From assembly GCA_965205975.1 (NCBI GenBank), contig OZ242195.1:2656001-2720000 (forward strand): a stretch of 64,000 bases of DNA, in the 5' to 3' direction. A program made the position numbers and the translations under genes. This DNA comes from Candidatus Latescibacterota bacterium (GTDB lineage Bacteria; Latescibacterota; UBA2968). Positions 1 to 15,410 of this stretch are shown one piece after another (within the stretch, counting starts at the first letter, position 1; each line of letters starts with the position of its first letter). The notes under the pieces are model-generated. The model was not told where the DNA came from. It made no database searches and saw only the letters and a list, made by a program, of their open reading frames with translations.

Positions 1-1079
1 GCTTTTAATACAACAACAATTCGCTCTGCGGTGTTGCCATCCCACAACTCGGGTAAGCGGCCAGATTTATAATGTCCGTTCAAAACAGATTCAGCCTCTG
101 CAACAATGCGTTCAGGACAAACACCCACAAGTGTGTTCGTCCCAATATCTATAGTCTCTGGGCGTTCTGTATTCTCTCTAAGCGTCAAACACGGCACACC
201 CAAAGACGTCGTCTCTTCTTGCAATCCTCCAGAATCTGTCATCACAAATTTTGCATTCTTCTGAAGTTTCAAAGAATCGAGATAGCCAACGGGATCCATA
301 AGTTTGACATTATCCATCATCTCAAGCCCTTGCAAAAAACCGAATTGAGATAGGCGATTGCGCGTTCTCGGATGCAAAGGCCACGCGATTGGACATTTGA
401 GAACTTGCAACGCGGATAAAATGCCAGCCAACGTATCTGGACAATCGACATTTGAGGCGCGATGGAGGGTTAGAAAAACGTACTCTTGAACTGATAAACC
501 GTGTATATCCAGAATGCTGGATTCATCAGCTTTGGGAGATAGCAACACAAGGGAATCGATCATCACATTGCCCACAAAATGAATGCGGTGATCTTCTATG
601 CCTTCGCGCCTCAGATTTTCACATGCCTGCTTCGAGGGTGCAAATAACAGATCGCTTATGGCATCCACAACGAGCCGATTGATCTCTTCGGGCATTGAAC
701 GGTCCCAACTTCGCAACCCTGCCTCTATGTGCCCAACGGGGATTTGCAATTTTGCGGCATCCATCGCACATGCCAAAGTGGAATTTACATCCCCAACCAC
801 AAGAACCCAATTCGGCCTTTCTTGAAGTAAAACCTCCTCAAATCCCATCATGATCTGCGCTGTCTGGTAAGCGTGACTGCCCGACCCCACATTTAATTCA
901 TAATGTGGCCTGGGAAGATTTAAGTCTCGAAAAAAAATCTCGGACATAAAATCGTCGTAGTGCTGTCCCGTATGCACCAGAATCGGATCAAACACATCGG
1001 GCGTCTTGACAAGTTGATACCACAGCGGAGCAACTTTCATAAAATTCGGCCGTGCACCTGCAACAAGAATAATTTTCAC
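1..1079 (-). CDS. wecB: UDP-N-acetylglucosamine 2-epimerase (non-hydrolysing); 3' end runs off the window
   Basis: Not in the ORF track; read manually from GTG at 1079 (RBS GAAGGAG upstream): VKIILVAGARPNFMK...HTGQHYD...VGDVNST...HIEAGLRS...PEEINR...TLHR...TDSGGLQEE...TLRENTERPET, all hallmark WecB motifs. Confidence 0.95.
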   Translation of the reverse strand, partial: MKIILVAGARPNFMKVAPLWYQLVKTPDVFDPILVHTGQHYDDFMSEIFFRDLNLPRPHYELNVGSGSHAYQTAQIMMGFEEVLLQERPNWVLVVGDVNSTLACAMDAAKLQIPVGHIEAGLRSWDRSMPEEINRLVVDAISDLLFAPSKQACENLRREGIEDHRIHFVGNVMIDSLVLLSPKADESSILDIHGLSVQEYVFLTLHRASNVDCPDTLAGILSALQVLKCPIAWPLHPRTRNRLSQFGFLQGLEMMDNVKLMDPVGYLDSLKLQKNAKFVMTDSGGLQEETTSLGVPCLTLRENTERPETIDIGTNTLVGVCPERIVAEAESVLNGHYKSGRLPELWDGNTAERIVVVLK

Positions 1080-1092
1080 CTGCCTACTCCTT

Positions 1093-1872
1093 CTATTTCG
1101 GAGTTTCCACCTGCCAAATCGGATACCGTATATCTGCCCGCTGCATCTCTCGTTGCAACCATTGATTAAACAGAAGCTTTCGGATCTCCTTTGCTATCCG
1201 CCCGTCCAGCATTGTCGGATAGAGTTCCTGTAATAAATACAGCGCAAAGCCTTTCGATACTTTTTCTGGACCAAAAATTTCACCTATCGAAGCGGCAAAC
1301 ACGCGCGCAGCAATCCCCTTTGGCAACTGCTTCCGCCGAACACGACCCAAAAAGCCACTACCTGATCGCGTGTGTGCATCTTGAGAAAACCGACGCGCCA
1401 TCGCGTGAAAATCTGCACCTTCTTCCCGTATCTGCAAATCAACCTCGTCGATCACATCCTTATCCATGTGAAAAATCCAGCAAATCTCCGCCTCATCAAA
1501 TTCCAGCGTGTGCTGTGCAAAATAGGATTCGACCTGCCCCTCGGCGATCTTCTCAGACAGCAAATACTCCAGTCGCCTCACCTCGGCATCTTCTGCCACA
1601 TCCTGAAGTGTAATACCCCGCTTTGCAAGATAGGCTTCTGTATCTTCTACCCGCTCCAAACGATGTTGATACCGCCAGTCATTCACCTTGCGCTGGATAT
1701 CCTCCGGCGCTGCACAAACACCCTCGCGTCGGGCGAGTTGGCGTATCAATTCTCTACGCGCAAATTCATTAAAAAAATGCAGATTATCAGCAACACCCAA
1801 TTGTCGCACGACATGGTGCAACGACACCTCGACATCATTGACCTGAACCAGTATAGCATCCTCTGACATCAC
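1093..1872 (-). CDS. PpiC/parvulin-type peptidyl-prolyl isomerase (SurA/PrsA-like) associated with a peptidase ABC exporter
   Basis: Rotamase motif ADFHAMARRFSQD...GSGFLGRV...IFGPEK...GF after a helical N-domain; no signal peptide; overlaps the HlyD stop (ATGA coupling). Confidence 0.8.
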   Translation of the reverse strand: MMSEDAILVQVNDVEVSLHHVVRQLGVADNLHFFNEFARRELIRQLARREGVCAAPEDIQRKVNDWRYQHRLERVEDTEAYLAKRGITLQDVAEDAEVRRLEYLLSEKIAEGQVESYFAQHTLEFDEAEICWIFHMDKDVIDEVDLQIREEGADFHAMARRFSQDAHTRSGSGFLGRVRRKQLPKGIAARVFAASIGEIFGPEKVSKGFALYLLQELYPTMLDGRIAKEIRKLLFNQWLQREMQRADIRYPIWQVETPK

Positions 1873-3254
1873 AACGCCCCCTCTTGCACATCGTATCTCG
1901 CCGACTCGTAAAGCTGTCGCAAAGGAGAAAGCAACATCAGCAAAACCGATTGCCGATCGGTCATAATCTCCGCCGTACCCTTCATGCCGAACATCAAAGG
2001 CTTGTCATATCCCTTCACACGCATCGTATTTTCTTCCAGTTCAACAACGCACTTAAATAGCGGTCCAATACGTTCATCAATCACCGCATCAGGTGAGATG
2101 TATATAAGCCACCCGCGTTTGATGCCAAAATCCTGAAAGGCATAAGCATCGTATTTCAGCTTGACCAACTGCCCGGGCTTGAGCAAACCCACATCTTTAT
2201 TCAACACCATCACCTCTGCAACCATCGGTGCCGAGGTCGGTGCCAGCGCAATTAGAGCCTGCCCCTTGTTGATCACCTGTCCCATCGCATTCACCATCAC
2301 CTGTGTGACAATGCCCGACTCAGGTGCTAAGATCAAATCCGACTCAGCTTCAAGGGTCCGATCAATGCGTTTGCGTGCCTGTTCCAATCGCAACTGTGCA
2401 GTCTCATAAGCGTGTCGCATCTGCGATGCCTCCCGCTCGTGTGCAATACGCGCCTCTGTGATTTGACGCTTGAGATCAGCCACAGCCATTTCATTCTTGT
2501 ATATCTCCGACATGCGCGATGGAAGCGCGGATAGAGCACTCAAATACTGCACACGCGCGCGATTCATAGCCGCCCGGCTGATCAACTCGCGCTCAAACAG
2601 CGTCTTTTGCTGCAAAAACTCCCCTTTCATAAGGTCAATCTCAGCCTGTCGAAATCCAATCTGCGCTTGCAATCCCGCATCAGATGTTTTGCTTTTCGAT
2701 CCGACACCATCCCCCACATCACTGTGATAATCTTCCAATGCATCCTGGTGCGCCTCCATAAACTGCTGCAAAACAGACAGGCGTTGCTCCAATACCCCTA
2801 TCGTCTCTCGATTTAACCTCGCCCTTTGTGGCAACACCGTCTTGAGATCGTACTCTGCCTTTTGAAAAGCCATCTTTGCCTGCTCCCATTCCCGCAACTC
2901 TCCCCAGGTCTCCCACGATTTGAGCTTAAACAATACCTCACCCTTCTCGACATGATCTCCCTCTTTCACGCCAATCAACTCAATCTCACCACCTCGCTGT
3001 GCCTGCATCGTCTTCACCTGTCCGAGGGGCACCAACCGAAAAGGGGCTGATGCCACCACATCCACCTCGCCCCACCACGCCCAGGTAATGGCAACAATCA
3101 CAAATAGCAGGACAATATAGAGCAATGCACGACCCCAAAAGGGCCGCAAGGATCCCATAAACGCATGCACCTCTTCTGCCGCGTCATCTTGTCCCTGAAT
3201 GATACCGGGAGACATTGTTTCTGCTGGTGTCTCCAAAAACCGTTCTGCCATCAT
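1869..3254 (-). CDS. HlyD-family type I secretion membrane fusion protein
   Basis: N-terminal TM helix, lipoyl-like motif GVKEGDHVEKGEVLF, long coiled coil, APESGIV and GMKGTAEI motifs. Confidence 0.93.
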   Translation of the reverse strand: MMAERFLETPAETMSPGIIQGQDDAAEEVHAFMGSLRPFWGRALLYIVLLFVIVAITWAWWGEVDVVASAPFRLVPLGQVKTMQAQRGGEIELIGVKEGDHVEKGEVLFKLKSWETWGELREWEQAKMAFQKAEYDLKTVLPQRARLNRETIGVLEQRLSVLQQFMEAHQDALEDYHSDVGDGVGSKSKTSDAGLQAQIGFRQAEIDLMKGEFLQQKTLFERELISRAAMNRARVQYLSALSALPSRMSEIYKNEMAVADLKRQITEARIAHEREASQMRHAYETAQLRLEQARKRIDRTLEAESDLILAPESGIVTQVMVNAMGQVINKGQALIALAPTSAPMVAEVMVLNKDVGLLKPGQLVKLKYDAYAFQDFGIKRGWLIYISPDAVIDERIGPLFKCVVELEENTMRVKGYDKPLMFGMKGTAEIMTDRQSVLLMLLSPLRQLYESARYDVQEGAL

Positions 3255-6200
3255 ACCACCTGCAACTGTTGACTACACATGTGATAGTACAAACCCTCTT
3301 GCACCATCAACTCATCGTGTGTGCCCATCTCCACAATATGACCCTTGTCCAGCACCACAATCGCATCCGCATCGCGCACCGTACTCAACCGATGGGCGAT
3401 AATCAATGCCGTGCGATCATCTAAAAACAGATCTAAATTCGCCTGAATCACCTGTTCCGAATCCGTATCTAAGGCATTGGTCGCCTCATCAAAAATCAAA
3501 ATTTTCGGATCGCAATACAGCGCCCGTGCAATCGCAATCCGCTGCCGTTGTCCACCAGACAGCCCCACACCCTGCTCACCCACCTTTGTCTCATAGCCCA
3601 AAGGCATATCGCTCACGAAATCGTGGACACACGATAGCTTTGCCACTTCCAAAATGCGGTCCATGTCCGCATCTGACTGACCAATAGCGATATTTTCTGC
3701 AATCGTGCCAGAGAACAAAAACGGCTCCTGCATCACCATACCCACCTGTCGCCGCAACCAATGAGGGTCCAGATCCCGCACATCCATACCATCTAAGGTC
3801 ACGCGCCCTTCTGACGGATCAAATAAACGAGGTACCAGCTTGACCAACGTGGTTTTACCCGCGCCACTACGTCCCACAACCGCAACTTTTTGACCCGGCT
3901 CAAGAATCAGATCAATGTTATTCAACACATACGGTTCATCAGAACCGACACCATATCTAAAAAATACCCCCTCAAAAACCACGCGCCCTTCCAAATGCTT
4001 TAAGATCAAACCCTGACCCTGTTGCCGCGCATCCTCCATCTGCGTGTCATACACATCATTCAGCCGATCCAGAGCAATACGCGCTTCTTGCACCTGCGGC
4101 CATATCCCAATCAAGCCCATAATCGGTCCCATCACATTGCCAATCAGCGCATTAAACGCCATCAACTGTCCAACCGACAGATTACCTGCAATCACCAGGG
4201 AAGCACCATACCACAAAATCACCGTACTGCTCAACAAATTGATCACGCTTCCGATCCCCCCAAACAGCATCTGCATTTTTAACCGTTGAAAGCCAATCTG
4301 CATTTCCTTTGTGAACTTACCTTCCCAATGCCACCGTGTCGCGCGCTCAACCGCCTCGGCTTTGACCACATCAATGCCGTGTAGCGAATCAATCAAAACC
4401 GATGATTGTTCGGCACGCGCCAGAAAAGCGCGCTGGCTGAAAGCCTTCAAAATGGGTGTGTAAATCAGCGTGAGACCTATAGAAAGCGGCACAAATATCA
4501 GCATCACCAGCGTCAGTTCGGCATTGTAATAAAACATCAGACCCAGATAGACAAAGAGCATGATAAAATCCAGAACCGCAGAAACCGTCGCACCCGTCAA
4601 CAAACGCTGAATCGTTGCATTCTCCCGAAACCGCGTGGTCAAATCTCCCGTGCGCCTGAGAGCAAAAAACCGCATGGACAGCGCCAATAAATGCCGATAA
4701 AAACGCGACAACATCGCAATGCTCAACCGCGCACTTACATATCCGATTAAATAGACGCGCAACGTTGATGTGCCCATCTGGAACAACGCAACCACGACCA
4801 TCCCTACCAGCATCAAATTCAACAAATCCTCGTCGTGATGCACTAAGACCTGATCGATAATCGTCTGCATAAAAATAGGCGATGCCAGACCGAACAAACT
4901 GAGCACTAAAGACGCTAATAGTACCTCAATCAAAATGCCCCTATAAGGCCGGATCAATGGAAAAAACCGCTTAAAAGAAGACTGGGACGGTTCGTTCTCT
5001 GCCACCTGATCCGTGTATTCCAACAACAGCGCCATGTTCGTCCACCCCTTCTCAAACTCTGCCCGCGACAGCTTGCGAATGCCCACACCTGGATCTGCTA
5101 TCTTCACCTCCCTTTTATTTATCTGATACAAGACCACAAAATGATTGCCTTCCCAGTGAAGAATGGCTGGCAATTCTGTCCGCATCAGAGCTTCATACCC
5201 CGTGCGCACACCGCGCGTGACAAAACCTATGGTTTCCGCAGCCTCGGCCAAAGCCGCCATCGACGTGCCAGAACGCGACACATTGGACATATCGCGCAGC
5301 CTGTTCAACCCAATAGGCATCTTGTAATACTTACAGATCATGCCCAAACACGCCGCGCCACAATCCGATTGATCGTGTTGCTTCAAGAATGGGAAGCGAA
5401 ACCAAGTGGATGGTTTTGCACCGTCTATTCTGATATTAACCACATTGGATGCTGTATTGGATACCGTGTCTTCTTGGATAACAGATTGCTCAACCGGTGT
5501 GGCCTCTTGATACCCCGATGGGGACAGGGCTTGCCGATCATCCCGTGCCTGTCTAAACCCTGCTCCATTCGTTCGCTGTTCTCCGCGCGATATGCGGCCT
5601 GCCTCCAACGCAGCCTCAAATCCCGGTATCATAGCTTTTAACTTATTAAAATCGCTTTTATCTATGTAAAAAAGCACACTATCACGCCGAGTGCGAATGA
5701 TCGTTTCGTCATCTCTACCATCGCCAAAATAATCCCCCGGGCGTAGAATCACCGTATTCCCATTTTCCAACACCGCCTCCAACTGACCGCTGCCAATCAA
5801 ATAAAATCGCTGTCCGAATTGCCCTTGATCAACAACGGTCACACCCTCCTCAACCGCCTCGCGCTTTAGCCGCGCGAACAACACCCGCATCGCCTCGCCC
5901 GGAACATCCCCTTTCAAAAACCGCGTAAAATCCCGATACGCAATACAGGCAACCTGCTCTTCAAGATATGCCCTTACATCAGAACTTTTTCTCACAGCCT
6001 TAAAAAATTCATCCTTCGGCACCTGCAACATCTCCGCATCCTCAACCGCTCGCACCGTTGCCCGATGCCCCTGCCTGCTCAACAGTGCCCCTTCGCCAAA
6101 ATGATCACCCGCATACAAATAGCCCACGGTCATCGAATTGCCATTCCCATCCTGCTTCATCACCCGCAACCGTCCAGACTGCACAATGTAAAACGCCTCA

Positions 6201-6295
6201 CCTTCTTGCCCCTGTTGAAAAACAACACCTCCAAAGGGAAAGTGAACAGATTGTGACCGCACCGAGTTTTTAATGAAAAAATGCGAAAGATTCAT
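3251..6295 (-). CDS. Peptidase-containing ABC transporter: two cNMP-binding domains + C39 peptidase + TMD + NBD
   Basis: cNMP motifs (FYIVQSGRL..GDHFGEGAL..RATVRA; FYLIGSGQL..GDYFG); C39 with intact Cys/His/Asp (QSDCGAACL, HWEGNHFVV, IADP); Walker A GRSGAGKT, LSGGQ, DEAT. Start set at ATG 6295 (GGAG RBS). Confidence 0.95.
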   Translation of the reverse strand: MNLSHFFIKNSVRSQSVHFPFGGVVFQQGQEGEAFYIVQSGRLRVMKQDGNGNSMTVGYLYAGDHFGEGALLSRQGHRATVRAVEDAEMLQVPKDEFFKAVRKSSDVRAYLEEQVACIAYRDFTRFLKGDVPGEAMRVLFARLKREAVEEGVTVVDQGQFGQRFYLIGSGQLEAVLENGNTVILRPGDYFGDGRDDETIIRTRRDSVLFYIDKSDFNKLKAMIPGFEAALEAGRISRGEQRTNGAGFRQARDDRQALSPSGYQEATPVEQSVIQEDTVSNTASNVVNIRIDGAKPSTWFRFPFLKQHDQSDCGAACLGMICKYYKMPIGLNRLRDMSNVSRSGTSMAALAEAAETIGFVTRGVRTGYEALMRTELPAILHWEGNHFVVLYQINKREVKIADPGVGIRKLSRAEFEKGWTNMALLLEYTDQVAENEPSQSSFKRFFPLIRPYRGILIEVLLASLVLSLFGLASPIFMQTIIDQVLVHHDEDLLNLMLVGMVVVALFQMGTSTLRVYLIGYVSARLSIAMLSRFYRHLLALSMRFFALRRTGDLTTRFRENATIQRLLTGATVSAVLDFIMLFVYLGLMFYYNAELTLVMLIFVPLSIGLTLIYTPILKAFSQRAFLARAEQSSVLIDSLHGIDVVKAEAVERATRWHWEGKFTKEMQIGFQRLKMQMLFGGIGSVINLLSSTVILWYGASLVIAGNLSVGQLMAFNALIGNVMGPIMGLIGIWPQVQEARIALDRLNDVYDTQMEDARQQGQGLILKHLEGRVVFEGVFFRYGVGSDEPYVLNNIDLILEPGQKVAVVGRSGAGKTTLVKLVPRLFDPSEGRVTLDGMDVRDLDPHWLRRQVGMVMQEPFLFSGTIAENIAIGQSDADMDRILEVAKLSCVHDFVSDMPLGYETKVGEQGVGLSGGQRQRIAIARALYCDPKILIFDEATNALDTDSEQVIQANLDLFLDDRTALIIAHRLSTVRDADAIVVLDKGHIVEMGTHDELMVQEGLYYHMCSQQLQVV

Positions 6296-6336
6296 TTTTC
6301 TAATTACTCCATTATGTGGATGAGCGCATATCCATC

Positions 6337-7200
6337 TCAATTATCGCATACCGGAGTTTCCTCAAGCTCAACCTCCGCCTCACGGTGATCTGTTTCTTCG
6401 CGCTTTGCCAACTGATAAAACCACCACAACCCAAGAACAGCCAATATTGGTCCGCACACATTCAACCACCACGGATTGTGAACCACAACATTAAAATCTT
6501 CTGAAACTGGAAAACCCGGTACATCGAAATGCAGAAATGTTGTAGCCAGAAAATTGTTCAGAGCGTGTCCCCAAATTGCAGGCCATAAAGACCCCGCTTG
6601 GATGACCCAATAGGCAAAGACAAGCCCTAATACAAAAGCCCCTGGAAATTGCCACGGATTCAAATGTATTAGACCAAATAAAATTGCCGACCACATAATC
6701 GCCCGATTTTGAGTACCATGTGCCAATAAACCTTTCAAGATAATGCCTCTAAAAACGACCTCTTCAATAAAAGGTGCTATCACAACTGCGCCCAATAAGG
6801 CTGACAGATAAGATGTTTTTTTGCCGAAAGATTGATGAAAGATGTCCTGAAATATATCTGGCATTGGCAAAACAGATATAACCGCATTGTACAATTCAGA
6901 AAGAACAACCCCCAGTCCAAAGATAGATAATCCAACGGAAAGCCACATGCGCCAGTCATAGTCTATATTTCTAATCGCAAGAGGCAACATATCTTTCCAG
7001 GTTCGACCCGTTCGATGCGAAATATAGCACAAAATCAGAATAAATTTTACCAACGACAAAAGCCAGAAAGAGTAATCATACTCAAACAAAGGTTTGTCAA
7101 TAATGGCACCTATAATGTCAATCAATATGGTCAAACCAAATGCGATGAGGATATATAATACCAGCAGCCAAACAGACTGTTTCAGATTTGGATACGTCAT
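6337..7200 (-). CDS. CPBP (CAAX/Abi) intramembrane glutamic endopeptidase, possible immunity or processing protein
   Basis: Multi-TM protein with EEVVFRG, FGLIH and GHALNN motifs. Confidence 0.92.
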   Translation of the reverse strand: MTYPNLKQSVWLLVLYILIAFGLTILIDIIGAIIDKPLFEYDYSFWLLSLVKFILILCYISHRTGRTWKDMLPLAIRNIDYDWRMWLSVGLSIFGLGVVLSELYNAVISVLPMPDIFQDIFHQSFGKKTSYLSALLGAVVIAPFIEEVVFRGIILKGLLAHGTQNRAIMWSAILFGLIHLNPWQFPGAFVLGLVFAYWVIQAGSLWPAIWGHALNNFLATTFLHFDVPGFPVSEDFNVVVHNPWWLNVCGPILAVLGLWWFYQLAKREETDHREAEVELEETPVCDN

Positions 7201-7300
7201 CTCTTTCCTTCTTGATAACTGATGTTACGCAGTGGTGAGTTGATTTTTTGTTCAAAGTATGGACAAAAAATCTAATAAGCTGTTTTAAAATTATTGAGAG

Positions 7301-7660
7301 TTAAAAAGTTTCGCGCTTCGCCACCTGAAAAAACCACCACAACCCAATCACAGCCAATAGTACCGCACACACATCTACCCACCACGGCAAAAAGATCAAA
7401 GCTTCTGAAATTTTCCCAAAGCCCGGTATTCCTGATCGTGCCAAGGTAACGGCCAAAAAACTGTTCAGTGCGTTTCCCAAAAGACAAGGCAACAAAGACC
7501 CCGTTTGAATAAACCACCATGCGAATACAAGTCCAAATGTGAAGGCCAGGGGAAATTGCCACGGATTCAGATAAGATAAAAAAAATAAAATTGTCGACAA
7601 AATAGCGGCCTGAGACTTTGAGCAACAGACCAATAAACCACCTAAAATAATGCCTCGGAT
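7301..7660 (-). pseudogene. C-terminal fragment of a second CPBP paralogue, truncated at the IS3 end
   Basis: RGIILGGLL...YLNPWQFP.AF..GLVFAWW.IQTGSL.P...GNALNS parallels the 6337-7200 protein; both catalytic His are replaced (H>Y, H>N); the N-terminal half is absent. Confidence 0.82.
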
Positions 7661-7701
7661 CTGTAACCCAAAATTTGAACCAGTTAGTAGGCTAATTTAC
7701 G

Positions 7702-8610
7702 CTAAGGGTCAGTCGTGATATTTCTCATAAGAATGGCCTGCACCACTTCTTGTGGCGTCTGGTAGCCCAAGGCAGAATGCCTTCGATCTTGATTGTAATA
7801 CGTCATTTGTTGCCCAATCACACAAATCAGTTCTGTCAAAGCGTCTGCGTGCATAATCAACGTTTTGTTTTCGGTCTTAAAACGTCCCCAAAAGGACTCT
7901 ATCCACGGATTATCTTTTGCCCCATTCATCGCAAAAGAAATCCCTGCACCTTCTCTTATCAATACACGGTGTAACCAGTCGTATGAGGTGTAAACCGAAT
8001 CGCGGTCGTGATGAATGAGGATGTCAGACAGTCTCCTGTCCAAACAGCTCAGGTTGTTTTGCAACTGGTCCAGACAGTATATCGCCAGGGCACGGTTGCG
8101 ATGTGCGCCTACGCCAAAGCCTGCGATCCACCTTGTCTGGATGTCCAAAAAGGCCATTAACCACGCTTTTTTCTGTCCTTGGCAATAGAACAATTCTGTA
8201 AAGTCGGTGCAAAAGACACGCAAGGGATCAATGGTGCGGTTCTGGACTAAATTAGCGTCTTGTCCGACTTGGCTTATCAGCTTCAATACCGGATTCTTGC
8301 CGCGTTTTGGCAGATGACGAGGTAAGTCTAACTCATAAGTTGACAATAGCTTACGCAACCGCTTATGATTGATCACGATGCCAGTACGGGCTTTTATATC
8401 TTCCTTGATGCGACGATACCCATAATCAGGATGATGCCTGATCGTCGTGATGATCTCATCCTTTATCTGGGCATCTTCACCCGAACAAGAGGCCCGACCG
8501 CGACGATAGGCAAGCGTCCCTTTCGACAAGCATAGGGCACGGCAGCACATATTTAGACCATACCTGTCTTTATGCCTCTCGACCAGTTCTACTTTGTCTG
8601 ACACGCTCAA
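7702..8610 (-). CDS. IS3 transposase OrfB (rve DDE domain)
   Basis: YGYRRI HTH_21 motif, CTDFTE, HHDRDSVY, DNPWIESFWGRFKTE, YYNQDRRHSALGY. Confidence 0.93.
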   Translation of the reverse strand: MSVSDKVELVERHKDRYGLNMCCRALCLSKGTLAYRRGRASCSGEDAQIKDEIITTIRHHPDYGYRRIKEDIKARTGIVINHKRLRKLLSTYELDLPRHLPKRGKNPVLKLISQVGQDANLVQNRTIDPLRVFCTDFTELFYCQGQKKAWLMAFLDIQTRWIAGFGVGAHRNRALAIYCLDQLQNNLSCLDRRLSDILIHHDRDSVYTSYDWLHRVLIREGAGISFAMNGAKDNPWIESFWGRFKTENKTLIMHADALTELICVIGQQMTYYNQDRRHSALGYQTPQEVVQAILMRNITTDP

Positions 8611-8891
8611 CGGTTGCCTAAAAAATTTTTGAGCAGAGCCAGTTCGACTTCTTTCTGACCTAACAGGCGCTCCAGATCAGACACACGCGCTTCATACGTC
8701 TTGACCGTATCGTTGCCAGAGAAAATCTCTGCACCACTGTCTATAAACTGACGCTTCCAATTTGATAGACTCACCGGGTGCACATCGTAAGCGCGAGCGA
8801 TTTCTGCATCCTCTTTGTCTGAGGTCAGTGCTTCTAACACGATCTGGAACTTGAGTTTAGCCGAGTAGGACTTCTTGGTTTTCTTACCCAT
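8607..8891 (-). CDS. IS3 transposase OrfA (HTH)
   Basis: YSAKLKFQIVLE..IARAYDVHP..LSNWKRQF followed by a leucine zipper; GGAG RBS. Confidence 0.92.
   Translation of the reverse strand: MGKKTKKSYSAKLKFQIVLEALTSDKEDAEIARAYDVHPVSLSNWKRQFIDSGAEIFSGNDTVKTYEARVSDLERLLGQKEVELALLKNFLGNR
8619..8625 (-). promoter_or_regulatory. Programmed -1 ribosomal frameshift heptamer T TTT TTA joining OrfA and OrfB
   Basis: OrfA ends AAT TTT TTA GGC AAC CGT TGA; a -1 shift gives TTT AGG CAA CCG TTG AGC GTG, in frame with OrfB. Confidence 0.7.
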
Positions 8892-9138
8892 GGTATCTCC
8901 TCCTGTTGGTGAGAAAATACCACGATGATACTCAATGTCAATTAGCCTTTATACCGGGTCAACTTTTGGGGCGCACCTCAAAACGTTACAATCAGGCATT
9001 TTTAGATTATCTATGATGGTGTTCTTCTGAGGATACAGCGATAGCTTCTGGTAGTATATAGGGAACCTGGTTTTGATGGATGATCTTGAATCCATTTGTC
9101 ATTTTTCACTGAAACTATAAAAATACTCACCTGTTCCT

Positions 9139-9696
9139 CTACTCCTCTTTTTTTTGAAATATTTGAGCTATACCAAAAGCTGTAGGATGTCCTATAACGA
9201 TACATTCTCTATTAAATTTTCTTAGTTTTATAAGATCTGAGATATCTTTAGCACTAATTGCGAGCGCAAAACTCAATATATTGGCGGACCAATAAGATAA
9301 AGAAAGGCAAAAAAGTACTATACAAATACTGCCAGTAGTGATGAGAGGGGTAATTAATGCTTTTCTTTGACAACCTACTGAAACAGGGACCTTACATGCA
9401 CAAAATAGCACTAACCAGTATATATAAAATCCGAAATAGATATTATCTCGATCAATTTTTCCCAATTTGTGGTAAGCGACAAAATGAGAGAGTTCATGTA
9501 TAACTAAGATAATAAGAGCTGCAAGAATCATTGTTAAATAATCATCTTCCCATTGGACCTGAATCTTTTGTTCCTCCAAAAAGGAAAGTATCGACAAAAG
9601 AAAAATTAGCATGCTTGAATAAATGAGAACAGATGTGCCCCAAAGAACAATCAGGTTTGTTTTTATTTCGCCAACTTTATGTAGTACTTTTTTCAT
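9139..9696 (-). CDS. Membrane HExxH metalloprotease-like protein (DUF3267/zincin-like)
   Basis: TM helices with VIHELSH, followed by ALITPL and a D-containing late helix (SAKDISD); AT-rich gene. Start at ATG 9696; the track starts at 9747. Confidence 0.65.
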   Translation of the reverse strand: MKKVLHKVGEIKTNLIVLWGTSVLIYSSMLIFLLSILSFLEEQKIQVQWEDDYLTMILAALIILVIHELSHFVAYHKLGKIDRDNIYFGFYIYWLVLFCACKVPVSVGCQRKALITPLITTGSICIVLFCLSLSYWSANILSFALAISAKDISDLIKLRKFNRECIVIGHPTAFGIAQIFQKKEE

Positions 9697-9884
9697 ATAT
9701 AACTCAAGTTGTGTGGTATAGCGTAGCCATACTATAGGCCAAGACAAAGAAGCCCTTGCTGGTAACTTCAGGTTGTGGACACAGCGTTTTCGGGTGTGAA
9801 TCTGCTGTCTCCAATTTACATTGGAGCCTCTACTATTTCAACTAAGATAGGGACAATACCCAGAATAAGATGAAAGTAGAGAGA

Positions 9885-9920
9885 GTCGATGTCAAACCAC
9901 ATATGTAATTTGACATCGAC
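9885..9920 (-). terminator. Stem-loop downstream of the precursor genes (terminator, attenuator or mRNA stabiliser)
   Basis: Perfect 12-bp IR GTCGATGTCAAA / TTTGACATCGAC, 15 nt after the stop at 9936; pyrimidine-rich tail on the minus strand. Confidence 0.65.
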
Positions 9921-9935
9921 AAACAGTACTACAGA

Positions 9936-10307
9936 TTAATCAATAAGATCACTAACAAAATCTACGGCCGCATCCACACCTGCTTTAATCTCTTCCTTCC
10001 AGGTACCAGCAGCTACAGCTACAGCTGCAATTGCAGTTATAATAGGTGCTGCCCCTCCTCCTCCTGGCCCTGCGTTGTTTATTGTTGTGGTTGTGCTGTT
10101 GATAGTAACCATAACAGGTGGAGGCAGGAATTCAGATAGGAGCTCAACCAAAGGATTTGGTCCCAGGGGGACAACCATACGACCACCACCTACAACGTCT
10201 TGCATTTTCGGCAAATCCAACAACTTGTGTTTTACCTGCAATTTCGTACAGGTAACAAATCCTTCATCCGGATTCGTGATAATTCGATCAGTCTGTGTTT
10301 GAGTCAT
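9936..10307 (-). CDS. Putative precursor peptide C (41-aa double-glycine leader + 82-aa core)
   Basis: GGGAGG RBS; leader ends L(-12)..M(-7)..V(-4)VGG; shares RII.xP...VTC..L with precursors A and B. Confidence 0.75.
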   Translation of the reverse strand: MTQTQTDRIITNPDEGFVTCTKLQVKHKLLDLPKMQDVVGGGRMVVPLGPNPLVELLSEFLPPPVMVTINSTTTTINNAGPGGGGAAPIITAIAAVAVAAGTWKEEIKAGVDAAVDFVSDLID

Positions 10308-10414
10308 GATATCCTCCCAAAATAAATGAAGCAGAATTTATAACAAACTTTTCCACCTAAACTGGCCAACATATTCACTTTGCCAAATACTTATCGGGTT
10401 CTGAACTGTATTGG

Positions 10415-10633
10415 TCAGGGAAAAGGGTTAAAGATATCTTCCAAAATATCGTCCAAAATATCGTCCAGCGTCGGGTCAAAATCCTCACTGGTATCATCAC
10501 CTGGGACCGGGAAACATCCATCGGTACCAGAGATCCGAGCAATTTCAAGCCTATTCAAATCACTCGTTTTAATCGGCAGATTGGTCACACCTGTGACCGA
10601 TTGCTCAGGAATTGATATAATTCGTCTCGCCAT
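10415..10633 (-). CDS. Putative precursor peptide B (37-aa leader ending GT + 35-aa acidic core)
   Basis: AAGGAGGTG RBS; leader L(-12) E(-8) I(-7) I(-4) G(-2) T(-1); core DGCFPVPGDD...LDDILDDILEDIFNPFP. Confidence 0.78.
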   Translation of the reverse strand: MARRIISIPEQSVTGVTNLPIKTSDLNRLEIARISGTDGCFPVPGDDTSEDFDPTLDDILDDILEDIFNPFP

Positions 10634-10721
10634 TCTTCCTCACCTCCTTTCTTTACTGCCTCAGCGCAAATCGCTGAAATGTCGAATTTTGCGAAACGTT
10701 CTGTGGATCGTGGCACGATTC

Positions 10722-10946
10722 CTACCAAGAATCCCACCATTCACTCACTGTATCTTCGACATAATCCACCGCATCTTCGATATAATCAATAATATCTTCA
10801 AAGAGCTCAAGTGGATCTTCTCCTGGCAAAATGCATCCTCCTGCTGCATTCGCCATCTCACCATGTGCCAGTTCTATTTCTTGACCGGGGAGTTGAACAC
10901 AGGTCACAGAAACTTGTGCTGGCATTGATGTAATGCGCTTCGTCAT
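10722..10946 (-). CDS. Putative precursor peptide A (37-aa double-glycine leader + 37-aa acidic core)
   Basis: AAGGAGGTG RBS; leader ends ELAHGEMANAAGG; core CILPGEDPLELFEDIIDYIEDAVDYVEDTVSEWWDSW. Confidence 0.82.
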   Translation of the reverse strand: MTKRITSMPAQVSVTCVQLPGQEIELAHGEMANAAGGCILPGEDPLELFEDIIDYIEDAVDYVEDTVSEWWDSW

Positions 10947-11000
10947 TTTCTCGCACCTCCTTTCTTTTCCACCTCAACATAAGCCATATCCCTTCGCCAA

Positions 11001-12404
11001 TCAGGGAGCCGTGAGCATATCGCTGAAGTGTCGGATTTTGCGAAGCGTTTTGTGGGCTGTCGCGCGCGTTTCACATAAACCCAACAGGACGGCTTCGACT
11101 TCGTTTGGGTGTAAATGTTGCATCAAGTGAAGGCCCAGGCCTTCAATAAGGGACATATCTTGTCCCAAAAACGAAATGCGCGGCAATGGGCCTTGCACGC
11201 TTCCCAAATAGTTAAATCCCTTAGACACACTTTGCGGCACACCAGATACATCACAACCCTGTGTAAAACTCACGGTTATTGGTATCGGGCAGGCGGGTGC
11301 ATCGCGTTTGATCCGCAAATTTTCAAACAGTGCCATGTGCTGCTGCGCCGTGTGATCCCAGGAAAATTCGAGCGCGCGTTTGCGAGCACCCTCTCCCAAT
11401 TTCTCCCGCTCCGTTTTGCTATTCAACAAATCGCGTACAACATCTGAAATCACCTCAGGAGCGATATAACCCGTCACATTCAATGGCTCATCTTCAAACC
11501 GCTCAATCTCTATCAACCGCCCACAACTACCCAACAACTCTGGCGCACCCGCAAAATTTGTCGCCACAACCGGAAGACCACACGCCATGCCCTCTATCAC
11601 AGTTGAAGGACACGACTCATACGAATACACCGACAACGCGCACAACACATCCAGCATATTGTAATACAGCGGCATATCCGTATAGGGTTGCGCGCCCAAA
11701 AATATCACATTGGGCGAATGTGTCACAGGTGCGAACTGCTTGCCAATCACCGCAAACAACACATTGGGATTCAGATCGGCCATTCGCAAAAACGGATACG
11801 CACCCTTGCCCGGCTCAAACCGCCCACAAAAACCCACCACAGGCATCTCCAAAAAGCGTTGATCACCCGTCTTATCCGCGACCTCTTTGCGCGCTTGCAA
11901 CTTATCCATCGGCACAAACACCTCGGCATCTACCCCATTGGTAATAGGGCGCAAATACGATCGGTCAAACACCAGCTTGCCCACTTCCTCAGCGACATAC
12001 GCCGACTTGGGGGACAAAGCATCATAAGGCCGCAACAGCGAATAACATTGAAGCACCTTATCCATAAAATCGCGATTGCGTCCAAAAGAACACGACAGCC
12101 GAATCACAATGGGCGCGGGACACACATGGCGGAAAAATGCCAGGTCATCTACCCTGGGTTCAAACATCAGCACACCATCAAAATCCTGCCGCACAAACCA
12201 CTGGCGCGACGTATCAATCGTCTCAAATGCGGGTTGAATACCGTGCATATTCGGACCATAATCCACCGCTTCAGACGCTGGCATATACACCTCGCAATAC
12301 TTCGATAACGCCTGCACATGGTTAAAACCCGAAAGGGACGCCCCGCTATTCGACGCCATCACTTTCTCGCAGTCGTGATACGGGTGTGACACATAAATTT
12401 TCAT
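11001..12404 (-). CDS. GT4 glycosyltransferase with a ~95-aa C-terminal extension
   Basis: ITNGVD, GFCGRFEPGKG, E-x7-E motif ESCPSTVIEGMACGLPVV, FSWD; extra domain after the GT-B fold. Confidence 0.9.
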   Translation of the reverse strand: MKIYVSHPYHDCEKVMASNSGASLSGFNHVQALSKYCEVYMPASEAVDYGPNMHGIQPAFETIDTSRQWFVRQDFDGVLMFEPRVDDLAFFRHVCPAPIVIRLSCSFGRNRDFMDKVLQCYSLLRPYDALSPKSAYVAEEVGKLVFDRSYLRPITNGVDAEVFVPMDKLQARKEVADKTGDQRFLEMPVVGFCGRFEPGKGAYPFLRMADLNPNVLFAVIGKQFAPVTHSPNVIFLGAQPYTDMPLYYNMLDVLCALSVYSYESCPSTVIEGMACGLPVVATNFAGAPELLGSCGRLIEIERFEDEPLNVTGYIAPEVISDVVRDLLNSKTEREKLGEGARKRALEFSWDHTAQQHMALFENLRIKRDAPACPIPITVSFTQGCDVSGVPQSVSKGFNYLGSVQGPLPRISFLGQDMSLIEGLGLHLMQHLHPNEVEAVLLGLCETRATAHKTLRKIRHFSDMLTAP

Positions 12405-12416
12405 CTTTCACCTCAT

Positions 12417-14969
12417 TTAGACTGATTCTATAAACTTTCGCGTTTGCTCGGCACCATCCATGGACAGATGGTGTTCGGACACAGAACTTTCGAGCATTTC
12501 GGCAATAGCTTTTGCCATCTTTCCCGTACCTATTTGATCGGGGTGTATCACCCCTGCAATACCCAACGCCATCAACTGCTGCGCGCGAAATTCCTGATCA
12601 TCCATTGCAATACTCGGCACCAGAATCGACGGGGCCTGTGTCTCGAGCACATTCATACACGTATTGTAGCCCGCCCGGCTAATCGATAAATCCGCGTGTT
12701 TCATCCACGCCAAAAAATTGGACGTAAAGCGCTCAAGGCGAAACGGACCATCACCGCATAACGCGCGCAAAGCCTCAAAATGCGTTTCATCGATAAACGC
12801 ACCGGCAAAAATCACCATCTCGCGTCCATCGTGCGCAACGTCCTGCTCCAATTGTTTCCACGCTTCAATACAAGGTGCAATAAGCGCAAGCCCCTCAGCC
12901 CCGCCACCAGCACTGACCAACACATACCGATCAGGCGCAGGATCAGGTCGAGATACGTCCTCGAGTTTCTCAGAGATAAACCCCGTATAAACCACGGGAA
13001 TATCGATATCACCAGTCCAGGGAAAGTGATCTTCCAGCCGGGACAATTTGGAATCGCCATGCACCAATACCGCATCGAAATACTGATTCAACACGGGCAC
13101 GACCTCCTCGTAATACTGCCGATTAAAAGCCAAATACTCGTGATGTATCCCGCCAAAAGGCACCGAATAAAACCGCATCGCATCTCCATCGCGTCTCTGG
13201 GTAAGCGGAAAAGTCAGTTGCAACGCATCGCTTTTTGCCCGCGTTGGAATATCGCGCAGTGAACACAGCACCTTCGCGTCGGGATTGACCTCATTGAGCC
13301 TGACAATGGTATTGAGGATCTCGTTCTTGAGCGACCATCGGGAAAAGGGAAAAAACTCAACACAAAACACATCGGGACGAATCTGCTCCATCACGTCGGC
13401 AAGCTGTGTCTGGCGCTCGCGCATAACAGCCTGCAAATCGCGCTCCTTATCAACAGACTCAATACCCTGCGCACCCGTGCGAAGCGGCGGCAGAGGAATA
13501 CGTACCACTCCTTCATCGAGATCAGCTTCGGGAATTGGTCGCCCGCCATCGATAAAAAACACATCGCATGTCTTCACCAGTTCATTGACAATCTGTCGAT
13601 TGCGAAAATGGTGCCCAACGCCAATGAGGTGCTGGCTGTAAAATGCAACGCGTGTGCGGGTTTTTGCTTGTTGATTAATACATTCCATACGGGCAGGACA
13701 AACGGCTATCGCGGCCTCATAGATCCCGCGATAGCGTTCCACAACCTGCCTCCATGTGTGCTCTGACCGCACCCATTCGTTGCCCCCTTGCCCCAATTGC
13801 ATCCGCAGCGAGGGATTCTCGATGAGTTCGGCACACGTCTGGGTGAGACTTTCGACATCATCTGCCACAAAAACGCGCCCGGTTTCGCCGTCTGTAACCA
13901 CCTCCTTGAGTGCGGCTACATCGCTAACGACAACGGCTTTTTCCATCGCCATTGCCTCATAAGGCTTCATCGGCGTGACCAGTTCGGTAACGCGGCTACG
14001 CGTACGCGGAATAACAAAAACATCTAACATCGCGTAATATGCAGCTATTTGGTCGTGCGGTATTTCACCCGTAAAAATCGCCACATCCGCCAGACCGCGT
14101 TCCTGTGCTTCGCGCTGCAATGCTGGCAGGTCTCGTCCACCCCCCACAATCAACACTTTGAGATTGGCATACTGCCCGCGAAGAACCTCACACGCCTGCA
14201 ACAACAACCGCAATCCCTCCAGTGACCGCACCAGACCGATATAGCCCACCACCACATCTTCCGGTTCAATCCCCAGATCATTGGCAAGTTCGCCTGACCG
14301 ATTTTTGGGTGCATATTGCTCAACCGCCACACCATTGGGCACTACGCCAATTTTCTCTTCGTCAACCCCCTCGCGTATGCATTCTGCTTTCAACACCTCG
14401 GACAGCGTCACCACAGCATCGGCTCGTTGCATCGCATTGACATGTTGCGCGTGTTGCTGGCGATACACCTCTGAATCGGGAGCCAGCATACCCTGCGCCA
14501 CACCGCTATCGTGCCACAAACCCCGCACCTCGTACACCACAGACAGACCACAGTGATGTCCTATATCAATCGCAACCTGTGCATTTCTACCCGGTGACGC
14601 CGCGTGCAACACATCGGGTTTTTCTGTCTCAACAGCCCGCGCAACGCGTTTGCGAAAGTGTTGCTCCTGCCCCACACGATAGATTCGTGGGGTATCTGGC
14701 AATTGAAATTTGCCCAGACGTTCGGACAGACGTGCTGTGTATGCTTCAGAAGTATTTCTCAAATAAGGCACATCATTGATATATTCAATATCATCAGCGA
14801 GTTGCTCAGACACACCCCAGCGCGTGAGCACCACAGGATCAAAGCCGAGCGCTTTCTGCGTATTGATGATATACTGGCTTCGCAAACTGTAGCCGCTTTG
14901 TCGGTGTGGCAGCGAAACATCCAGAATATGTAATATCTTCATCGGCATAGGATTTTCAAATTGTCTCAT
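12417..14969 (-). CDS. Fused two-module glycosyltransferase: N-terminal GT4 + C-terminal GT28/COG4671-like
   Basis: N-half KILHILD.SLP..SGY..R, YEVRGLW, VPNGV, PMKPYEAMA; C-half FYSQHLIGVGH, EFFPFSR, VSAGGGAEG, SISRAGYNT. Confidence 0.88.
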   Translation of the reverse strand: MRQFENPMPMKILHILDVSLPHRQSGYSLRSQYIINTQKALGFDPVVLTRWGVSEQLADDIEYINDVPYLRNTSEAYTARLSERLGKFQLPDTPRIYRVGQEQHFRKRVARAVETEKPDVLHAASPGRNAQVAIDIGHHCGLSVVYEVRGLWHDSGVAQGMLAPDSEVYRQQHAQHVNAMQRADAVVTLSEVLKAECIREGVDEEKIGVVPNGVAVEQYAPKNRSGELANDLGIEPEDVVVGYIGLVRSLEGLRLLLQACEVLRGQYANLKVLIVGGGRDLPALQREAQERGLADVAIFTGEIPHDQIAAYYAMLDVFVIPRTRSRVTELVTPMKPYEAMAMEKAVVVSDVAALKEVVTDGETGRVFVADDVESLTQTCAELIENPSLRMQLGQGGNEWVRSEHTWRQVVERYRGIYEAAIAVCPARMECINQQAKTRTRVAFYSQHLIGVGHHFRNRQIVNELVKTCDVFFIDGGRPIPEADLDEGVVRIPLPPLRTGAQGIESVDKERDLQAVMRERQTQLADVMEQIRPDVFCVEFFPFSRWSLKNEILNTIVRLNEVNPDAKVLCSLRDIPTRAKSDALQLTFPLTQRRDGDAMRFYSVPFGGIHHEYLAFNRQYYEEVVPVLNQYFDAVLVHGDSKLSRLEDHFPWTGDIDIPVVYTGFISEKLEDVSRPDPAPDRYVLVSAGGGAEGLALIAPCIEAWKQLEQDVAHDGREMVIFAGAFIDETHFEALRALCGDGPFRLERFTSNFLAWMKHADLSISRAGYNTCMNVLETQAPSILVPSIAMDDQEFRAQQLMALGIAGVIHPDQIGTGKMAKAIAEMLESSVSEHHLSMDGAEQTRKFIESV

Positions 14970-14999
14970 GTCTTTCCAGTACTTTTAAGACCTATTCTT

Positions 15000-15410
15000 T
15001 TATGAATTTTTTTGAATAAGGCTTTCGCATCTCACTTTTGCGCGGTAAGCGGTAAGAGACATGTCATTTACCTTCTTAAACACCTCACAAAAATACTTTG
15101 AGGACCGATACCCACACGCACTTGCAACCTCATAGGTCAGCAAGGATTGTTCACCTATCAAGTGCTGTGCATGAGCAATTCTGATCTCTCTCAACTTTTC
15201 TCGGAAAGGCTTGCCAACATGCTTTTTGAACAAGGCACTCAGATGCGTTCTGGAAAGTTTGAAATGATCTACGAGATCACTAAATTTGAGGTCCGGGTTG
15301 CTGTAATGCGCCTCCAAAAAGGCTTCAAACGCGATTTTCCAACTCGAATCTGATGGGATATGGGTTTTGACCTTCGCCAAAAACTTGCTCCTTTCAACTA
15401 CACTATTCAA
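15000..15410 (-). CDS. AraC-family regulator consisting of the HTH domain only
   Basis: LSRTHLSALFKKHVGK...RIAHAQHLI...EVASACGY....YFCEVFKK...S..AYR. Confidence 0.88.
   Translation of the reverse strand: MNSVVERSKFLAKVKTHIPSDSSWKIAFEAFLEAHYSNPDLKFSDLVDHFKLSRTHLSALFKKHVGKPFREKLREIRIAHAQHLIGEQSLLTYEVASACGYRSSKYFCEVFKKVNDMSLTAYRAKVRCESLIQKNS

Follow-up and report, generated by a model that had tools for sequence, protein, structure and literature searches.

Nucleotides 1-15410 of the window analysed here, a stretch of 64,000 nucleotides from a Candidatus Latescibacterota bacterium (assembly GCA_965205975.1, contig OZ242195.1, positions 2,656,001 to 2,720,000), carry a gene cluster on the minus strand that encodes small leader-bearing peptides, glycosyltransferases (GTs) and a peptide exporter. 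The genome comprises 5.56 Mb in one contig. We consider it probable that the cluster is a double-glycine bacteriocin-like cassette equipped with an optional glycosylation module, and that this module O-glycosylates a serine residue in a short acidic motif of the peptide cores; the glycosylation of the peptides is proposed from sequence data. The central enzyme, GTa (467 aa; 11001..12404), was assigned to family GT4 by its AlphaFold2 model, fold matches to GT4 enzymes, sequence motifs and a tree. An earlier reading of the window, made without database searches (the sequence-only reading), had listed an AraC regulator, GTs, small open reading frames (ORFs), membrane proteases, an exporter, HlyD, a rotamase and wecB, and every listed gene was found on the minus strand.

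Precursor peptides and the conserved cassette

The three small ORFs encode the peptides P1 (74 aa; 10722..10946), P2 (72 aa; 10415..10633) and P3 (123 aa; 9936..10307). They are preceded by GGAGG-type ribosome-binding sites and their leaders are homologous, both as claimed beforehand. The leader spans about 37 residues (37 in P1) and consists of an R-x-T-x-P...F-x-x-C-x-x-LP extension followed by L(-12), M(-7) and G(-2). All features expected of a double-glycine/C39 system were observed, namely a leader with L(-12), a hydrophobic residue at -7 and G(-2), and a C39 exporter in which the Cys, His and Asp motifs of the predicted triad are all kept. The term double-glycine applies literally to P1 and P3, where GG marks the predicted cleavage site, but not to P2, whose leader ends with GT (GA in its paralog). 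Similarly, the cores were expected to be highly acidic, which holds for P1 and P2 with net charges of -13 and -12, but not for P3 with its mostly hydrophobic, Ala/Gly-rich core, a Thr-rich stretch and a charge of -5 over 82 aa. The cores of P1, P2 and P3 contain 1, 1 and 0 Cys and end with Trp, Pro and Asp, respectively.

A hidden Markov model (HMM) of the leader matched eight ORFs in the whole genome at E<=1e-13, all of them inside three GT/exporter clusters, and the next match had E=0.008. Applied to 37 loci fetched around GTa matches, the same model yielded 72 precursors of 65-155 aa, which were present in 36 of the 37 loci. The near-invariant Gly is followed by G in 44 of these peptides, by L in 18, A in 4, Q in 4, and by E and T in one each. 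The cores fall into 19 families that are acidic and Trp-ending, Gly/Ala-rich, Ser/Thr/Gly-rich, or Cys-tailed, and 65 of the 72 are net-negative, so that not all are anionic. A conserved leader joined to a variable core is typical of precursors, in agreement with how the small ORFs had been read; the leader family had no match in Pfam or NCBIfam. Traces of a tandem duplication involving the GTa 3' end, the ribosome-binding site and the precursor start were detected within 10601..11066 (10601-10663 versus 10914-10976, 75% identity; 10666-10717 versus 11015-11066, 81%), and P2 appears, from this repeat pattern, to be the product of a duplicated GTa end and P1 start. Orphan precursors with this leader family occur at L202:9429-9791 and L203:9637-9999, with no cassette gene within the fetched 20 kb.

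The gene order is strongly conserved. Among the 37 loci, a GT28-like module lies upstream of GTa in 33 and the exporter downstream in 34; the exceptions are loci cut by a contig edge, broken copies and a single rearranged locus. The latter is also the one locus without a precursor, and its other half is located about 35 kb away. In the loci searched, GTa was not seen outside the cassette except in this rearranged locus. The genome contains two further cassette copies, at about 250 kb and about 2.80 Mb, with GTa proteins 91-93% identical, giving three copies in all, and all three exporters of this type as well as all eight leader matches fall in GTa clusters. Of 61 related genomes, GTa turned up in 25, among them all 20 of the other genomes of the genus; the system therefore occurs in all 21 genomes searched of the genus, with up to four copies each. 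Of the named records with close GTa relatives, 30 of 31 are from Ca. Latescibacterota. The conserved synteny of leaders and GTs, proposed as a check by the sequence-only reading, thus places the GTs within the cassette. That reading had also named an adjacent polysaccharide locus as a possible home of the GTs and wecB, which was rejected: no flippase, polymerase or initiating transferase was evident in the cassette or in the 26 kb left of the window, the latter inspected by eye. An expression signal from one metatranscriptome run (27/30 bins, mostly at 85-95% identity) was not counted, since it concerns a relative and DNA carry-over is possible.

Directly upstream of the third paralogous cluster (L184, G000:C1:2811994-2814781) lie genes for a radical S-adenosylmethionine (SAM)/SPASM enzyme bearing a RiPP recognition element (RRE; RiPP, a peptide made by ribosomes and modified after its translation) and for a methyltransferase-like protein. 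The radical SAM gene was rejected as a regular cassette part, as it occurs in 1 of 37 loci. The same pair is also found near more distant exporters (L212; radical SAM only in L209). These belong to a set of more distant loci of the same genus (L206-L216) that encode exporters with cyclic nucleotide (cNMP)-binding, C39 and ATP-binding cassette (ABC) domains, HlyD and a rotamase at about 55% identity, and in which no match to the leader or GTa was obtained.

A serine motif in the cores and the GT-less genus g7

The motif [DE]-x-[VIAFLT]-S-[ED] is present in all three peptides of the window and marks the candidate acceptors Ser68 in P1, Ser49 in P2, and Ser58 and Ser119 in P3. It occurs in 13 of the 19 core-family representatives compared to 0.65 in shuffles, a count that has to be read with the motif having been picked by eye on the same cores. 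When the serine position was swapped for other residues, the motif was found with Thr in 0, Ala in 1, Glu in 4 and Gly in 4 of 18 cases; 5.7% of acidic windows of the proteome contain the motif. Among database homologs of the precursors, 72 of 108 parsed cores carry it (12 of the 120 listed were left unparsed, and there were 26 further matches).

An out-of-sample comparison was provided by genus g7. The homologous exporter is encoded in 15 of 15 g7 genomes and leader matches were obtained in 14, while GTa, the GT28-like module, the N-terminal module of GTb (see below) and wecB were each found in 0 of 15. In the 16 g7 loci fetched, the proteases, the immunity-like genes and the families of precursors are the same, and GT-B genes are missing. 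With GTa, the motif is present in 58 of 72 cores and 32 of 36 loci; without these GTs, 0 of 51 cores (two of which, as parsed, still included some of the leader) and 0 of 16 loci have it. The median core net charge is -2 in g7 versus -8 in GT-bearing loci. In aligned homologous cores of at least two families, g7 has Ala where GT loci have Ser (IAELFG versus ISEEFG, IVAELT versus ILSEIT). Hence, the core serine varies together with the GTs, which is what an acceptor site would be expected to do. In the exporter tree, g7 makes up a single clade that lies among the exporters of GT-bearing loci, suggesting a single loss of the GTs; the tree was built by a fast method and its support labels moved when it was re-rooted, so that only its topology was used.

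Eleven of the 16 g7 loci (L185-L200) are flanked, on the opposite strand, by a gene for a TMEM260-like membrane transferase; some copies are broken, and in some loci a GtrA-like gene accompanies it. A role for this transferase is conceivable.

The GTa family, accessory sugar genes and proposed mechanism

The AlphaFold2 model of GTa (pLDDT 91) displays a GT-B fold at aa 1-368, followed at aa 377-465 by a family-specific domain with three strands and three helices. Its fold matches are GT4 enzymes, E263-x7-E271 is intact, and the E-x7-E and R/K donor-binding motifs of GT4 are kept in 12 of 12 GTa family members. A profile search returned 76 representatives of the GTa family at E<=1e-30. Many of them are 540-580 aa long, share the C-terminal domain of GTa and are extended at the N-terminus by about 100 residues. 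An HMM of this extension matched the N-terminal RREs of three radical SAM/SPASM enzymes of this genome (E 2e-9 to 2e-7), single N-extended members matched the N-termini of the radical SAM maturase models NF040492 and TIGR03974 (E about 1e-5 to 1e-6), and sub-threshold PqqD matches were obtained in 5 of 34 cases. As judged by these profile matches, the wider GTa family carries an N-terminal RRE.

The named RRE-bearing relatives are from Ca. Poribacteria. In metagenome loci, the RRE-GT4s occur as tandem pairs in which one enzyme has the catalytic motifs (19/19) and its partner lacks them (kept in 1/16), and an A24 peptidase often adjoins the pairs. Of 64 metagenome loci returned, 14 were annotated, the remainder being weak generic GT4 matches, short fragments and duplicates. 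In five of the 14 (two of which overlap on one contig), precursors were found whose conserved leader is a different one and whose variable cores are rich in Cys. Thus, since its relatives carry an RRE and flank another precursor family, the GTa family looks peptide-directed, and the reading of the GTs as peptide-tailoring enzymes gains a second, unrelated context. The catalytic domains of the family group apart from seven generic GT4s (SH-aLRT 99) in a quick tree that, with seven outgroup rows, cannot tell RRE loss in GTa from gain in its relatives.

This sister system (L090:10001-13736, L095:42-10367, L097/L101, L099:119-1615) comprises a tandem RRE-GT4 and RRE-pseudo-GT4, an A24 prepilin-type peptidase and an ABM-like protein. 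Up to four precursors were found per contig, each with a conserved leader, a hydrophobic stretch and a Cys-rich variable core, and each followed by a beta-propeller gene; the precursors tested gave no Pfam or NCBIfam match.

The C-terminal domain of GTa had no convincing Pfam match, and neither PDB sequences nor the Atlas gave a match. A single-sequence model of the domain lost its strands, and the fold search with it returned generic helical matches (best Z 6.4), which says nothing because the model was too poor. Structure prediction of a GTa-leader complex reached a score of 0.55 compared to 0.00 for the best control, with at least 27% of contacts agreeing between runs and a partner pLDDT of at least 41. 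In the calibration, scores of <=0.60 were found only in 18 of 157 solved complexes and in both mismatches that passed, and a pass at such a score is more often wrong than right unless the pairing is likely beforehand; the prediction lends weak backing to a pairing of GTa with the leader.

The second GT protein, GTb (850 aa; 12417..14969), was identified by Pfam and NCBIfam models as a fusion in which a GT4 module covers about aa 1-420 and a GT28/GT1-like one about aa 430-850. PDB sequence matches of the latter were weak (E 0.013 or worse). According to synteny and co-distribution with wecB, the GT28-like module belongs to the core cassette and the N-terminal GT4 is accessory. Of the 21 genomes in the genus, which as kin are not independent, 12 have both wecB and the GTb N-terminal module, 7 have neither and 2 have only one of them; such a module lies no more than 20 kb from 13 of 15 wecB copies. 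One paralogous cluster additionally encodes a WecC-like dehydrogenase and an epimerase. WecB and the GTs had been taken for one tailoring set. This holds for GTa and the GT28-like enzyme, which are cassette members, but not for WecB and the N-terminal GT4, which also occur without the cassette. As these two co-distribute and are optional, the core module consists of GTa and the GT28-like enzyme, and N-acetylmannosamine (ManNAc) or its uronic acid (ManNAcA) is likely to be an optional sugar of the product.

Related sugar genes were noted elsewhere. Two loci (L174:5601-14474, L175:4945-17199) encode a GT4+GT28-like fusion with 41-47% identity to GTb, another GT4, WecB and WecC, together with a homolog, below cut-off, of a daptide-type HExxH membrane protease, and these loci are possibly another peptide system. 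At G000:C1:2157082-2163306, a paralog of the GT28-like module (42%) is found in one operon with genes that were read by eye as GT2-like, GT4 and subtilisin-like protease.

From the genes, synteny, folds, family relations and motif co-variation that were observed, we infer the following course, in which binding, catalysis, sugars and function are all conjectural. The conserved L(-12)/M(-7)/G(-2) signature of the leader would be read by the C39 peptidase. GTa, as a retaining GT4, would bind the precursor, possibly via its C-terminal three-strand/three-helix domain, for which the complex prediction gives little backing, and would add the first sugar to the Ser of the acidic [DE]-x-hydrophobic-S-[ED] core stretch, as suggested by the co-variation. 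The GT28-like module may then lengthen the sugar. Where present, as here, the N-terminal GT4 of GTb and WecB might supply a ManNAc-type cap, or ManNAcA with WecC, consistent with their co-occurrence and the known chemistry of WecB and WecC. The C39 domain would cut off the leader and the ABC/HlyD exporter release the product, assisted by the rotamase, while CAAX protease, zincin and small membrane proteins might confer immunity or trim the peptides. Duplication and core swapping would diversify the products, which are probably bacteriocin-like or signalling glycopeptides.

Several observations weigh against this mechanism. The sequence-only reading had named homologous exporter and precursor loci lacking GTs as a refuting case, and this was found in part: the GTs are missing from all 15 g7 genomes. 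The GTs are therefore an optional module that the peptides do not need. As g7 is one clade, the contrast in GTs and motif amounts to one phylogenetic event in several paralogous cores, and in g7 cores the motif is expected by chance only 0.5 times in 51. Despite GTa, the motif is missing from 14 of the 72 cores and from 4 of the 36 loci, and among wholly new core families of the homologs only 2 of 4 have it; the motif could be an element of recognition or folding rather than the acceptor. GTa itself lacks an N-terminal RRE, as its GT-B fold begins at residue 1 and the N-extension HMM gave no match, and no link between its C-terminal domain and RREs could be established either (hhalign probability 7.9%). 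Finally, the two loci with GTb-like, wecB and wecC genes contain neither GTa nor exporter nor leader.

Some of these points would suit peptides that are unmodified class II-type bacteriocins or signals, with the GT-B enzymes acting elsewhere, e.g. on a cell-surface glycan or receptor for self-protection. The GT-less g7 cassettes, the GT28-like and GT4 paralogs in other sugar loci of this genome, and the GTb-like loci with wecB/wecC but without this precursor family all fit such a scenario. We nevertheless regard it as unlikely, as GTa leaves the cassette only in the one rearranged locus, its relatives carry RREs and flank other precursors, and the Ser/Ala swaps that track the GTs would be left unexplained. 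It is rather improbable, too, that GTa is peptide-directed with another acceptor or chemistry, such as S-glycosylation of the Cys close to the start of the core, modification of the new N-terminus or of Trp, or transfer of a group other than a sugar, with the serine motif serving for docking. Cys is found within the first four core residues in 31 of 72 precursors and Trp in 61 of 72, the distant RRE-GT4 systems have Cys-rich cores in which no such motif was seen, and motif-less Thr/Gly-rich cores occur beside intact GTa. On the other hand, 17 of the 72 cores lack Cys while all 72 contain Ser or Thr, enrichment at the motif position is seen for Ser but for neither Thr nor Ala, and the donor-binding motifs of GTa are those of an ordinary GT4. 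A logic as in the class IIb microcin E492, where MceC glycosylates enterochelin and MceIJ join the product to a C-terminal Ser (PMC6071977, partial text), is highly improbable: that cluster also combines a glycosyltransferase with an ABC exporter and, as with some peptides here, a Gly/Ala-rich core and a small membrane protein gene downstream, but no acyltransferase or MceIJ-type ligase gene was seen in the cassette, and the window cores end with Trp, Pro and Asp rather than with Ser or a Ser-rich tail.

Further genes of the locus and relation to known systems

A short-form AraC-family DNA-binding protein (15000..15410; Pfam HTH_18, 5e-16) is encoded upstream, as in a subset of the loci. Three response regulators (G000:C1:1825543-1825920, 4635516-4635812, 4696714-4697076) share about 50% identity with it in their DNA-binding half; two of them adjoin HlyD/ABC/CAAX genes, and the AraC protein may be such a regulator minus its receiver domain. 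Downstream of the precursors follow a DUF3267 HExxH membrane zincin (9139..9747; PF11667, 1e-9), a putative immunity or trimming protease with homologs in loci both with and without GTs, and a CAAX/Rce1 (CPBP) intramembrane protease (6337..7200; PF02517, 1e-21) with a putative role in immunity. Both types of membrane protease had been recognised, but an IS3-family insertion element (7667..8970; orfA 8607-8891, orfB 7702-8610, 45-nt imperfect terminal inverted repeats) that cuts a second CAAX/Rce1 gene (7301..7656, 5'-truncated) had been overlooked. The element, which is not part of the peptide system, occupies a site where a relative has about 520 nt including the 5' half of this gene.

The long-type peptidase-containing ABC exporter (3251..6340) consists of two cNMP-binding domains, the C39 peptidase, and ABC membrane and ATPase domains. 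It is followed by the HlyD membrane fusion protein (1869..3254; TIGR01843 above cut-off) and a PpiC-type rotamase (1093..1872), identified by profile matches as the SurA-like partner of long-type exporters (PMC4558948, partial text). Translational coupling had been proposed and is supported by overlaps between exporter and HlyD and between HlyD and rotamase genes, but not between exporter and CAAX gene, because the exporter probably starts at 6295, as in its paralogs. WecB (376 aa; 1..1079; TIGR00236 above cut-off), a non-hydrolysing 2-epimerase acting on uridine diphosphate N-acetylglucosamine, is the accessory last gene. The cluster was thought to continue to the left; instead, wecB ends 51 nt outside the window, and next come an ORF for a lipoprotein-like product of 150 aa and a peptide ABC transporter in convergent orientation. 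No structured RNA of Rfam was matched in the 20 kb that surround the cluster, and promoter and terminator counts were about those expected from shuffling. Between P3 and the zincin gene, an element of about 90 nt (9771-9861) has at least four near-identical copies in the genome (92-93%), and an 18-bp perfect-loop palindrome is located at 9885-9920.

Glycocins such as sublancin, thurandacin and glycocin F are ribosomal peptides with a double-glycine-type leader and a C39 exporter, and their cores contain several disulfide-forming Cys that are served by oxidoreductases. The cassette resembles them in that glycosyltransferases are its sole visible tailoring enzymes. It differs by its GT-B enzymes of families GT4 and GT28-like, with up to three transferase modules, by the scarcity of Cys in the window cores, and by the lack of a disulfide oxidoreductase among the annotated genes; the glycocin enzymes are GT2 and modify Cys, sometimes Ser/Thr (PMC11912497, partial text). 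The products had been suggested to be unlike known glycocins, in agreement with these differences. Cyanobacterial long-type bacteriocin clusters (groups I, II and VI) share the cNMP(CAP_ED)-C39-ABC exporter, HlyD and SurA/rotamase (PMC4558948), but belong to another phylum, and the cassette has its own leader family and a dedicated GT-B module.

GT4 enzymes that place a sugar on protein serines are GtfA/GtfB and SdgB. GtfA and SdgB are among the fold matches of GTa (Z 21.2 and 21.9), well below small-molecule GT4s. The active/inactive pairs of the distant GTa relatives are reminiscent of GtfA/GtfB; the clade of the window has no inactive partner. The substrates differ, being giant repeat proteins exported by the accessory Sec pathway in those systems and short leader-bearing precursors here. 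TIGR04157 describes a GT predicted in GG-peptide clusters of Bacteroidales; GTa was rejected as a member (27.4 bits versus a cut-off of 400).

No description of the cassette was found in the full-text literature, subscription papers lying outside this search. The accessible parts of the sponge-symbiont mining papers PMC12993501, PMC11832590 and PMC9426513 and of the Bacteroidales study PMC10352776 do not describe it. Uncharacterised RRE-GT fusions are mentioned in passing in PMC7470986 (GT family unstated) and PMC12710340 (GT2, PF00535), both in the portions available. The former, labelled only 'Glycosyltransferase' in file 7 of that paper, may overlap the wider GTa family.

Glycosylation is rare in RiPPs, and the single class defined by it uses GT2 enzymes (PMC11912497, in the text available). 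We tentatively suggest, at somewhat less than even confidence, that GTa represents an undescribed family of leader-guided GT4 peptide glycosyltransferases and a new RiPP class defined by GT-B enzymes. In Latescibacterota, these would build an oligosaccharide on a Ser sequon in hypervariable acidic cores that a C39 system exports, and in Poribacteria and others an RRE-bearing active/inactive pair would act on A24-processed Cys-rich peptides, the sequon being gained or lost with the enzyme. If true, a GT4 guided by a leader and a five-residue Ser motif across diverse cores would extend RiPP chemistry, and GTa could become a portable tool for site-specific peptide glycosylation. The prediction names serines and enzymes and is directly testable, with the GT-less genus g7 providing natural negative controls. 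The presence of the cassette in all 21 genomes of the genus indicates that it is probably important to these uncultured bacteria.

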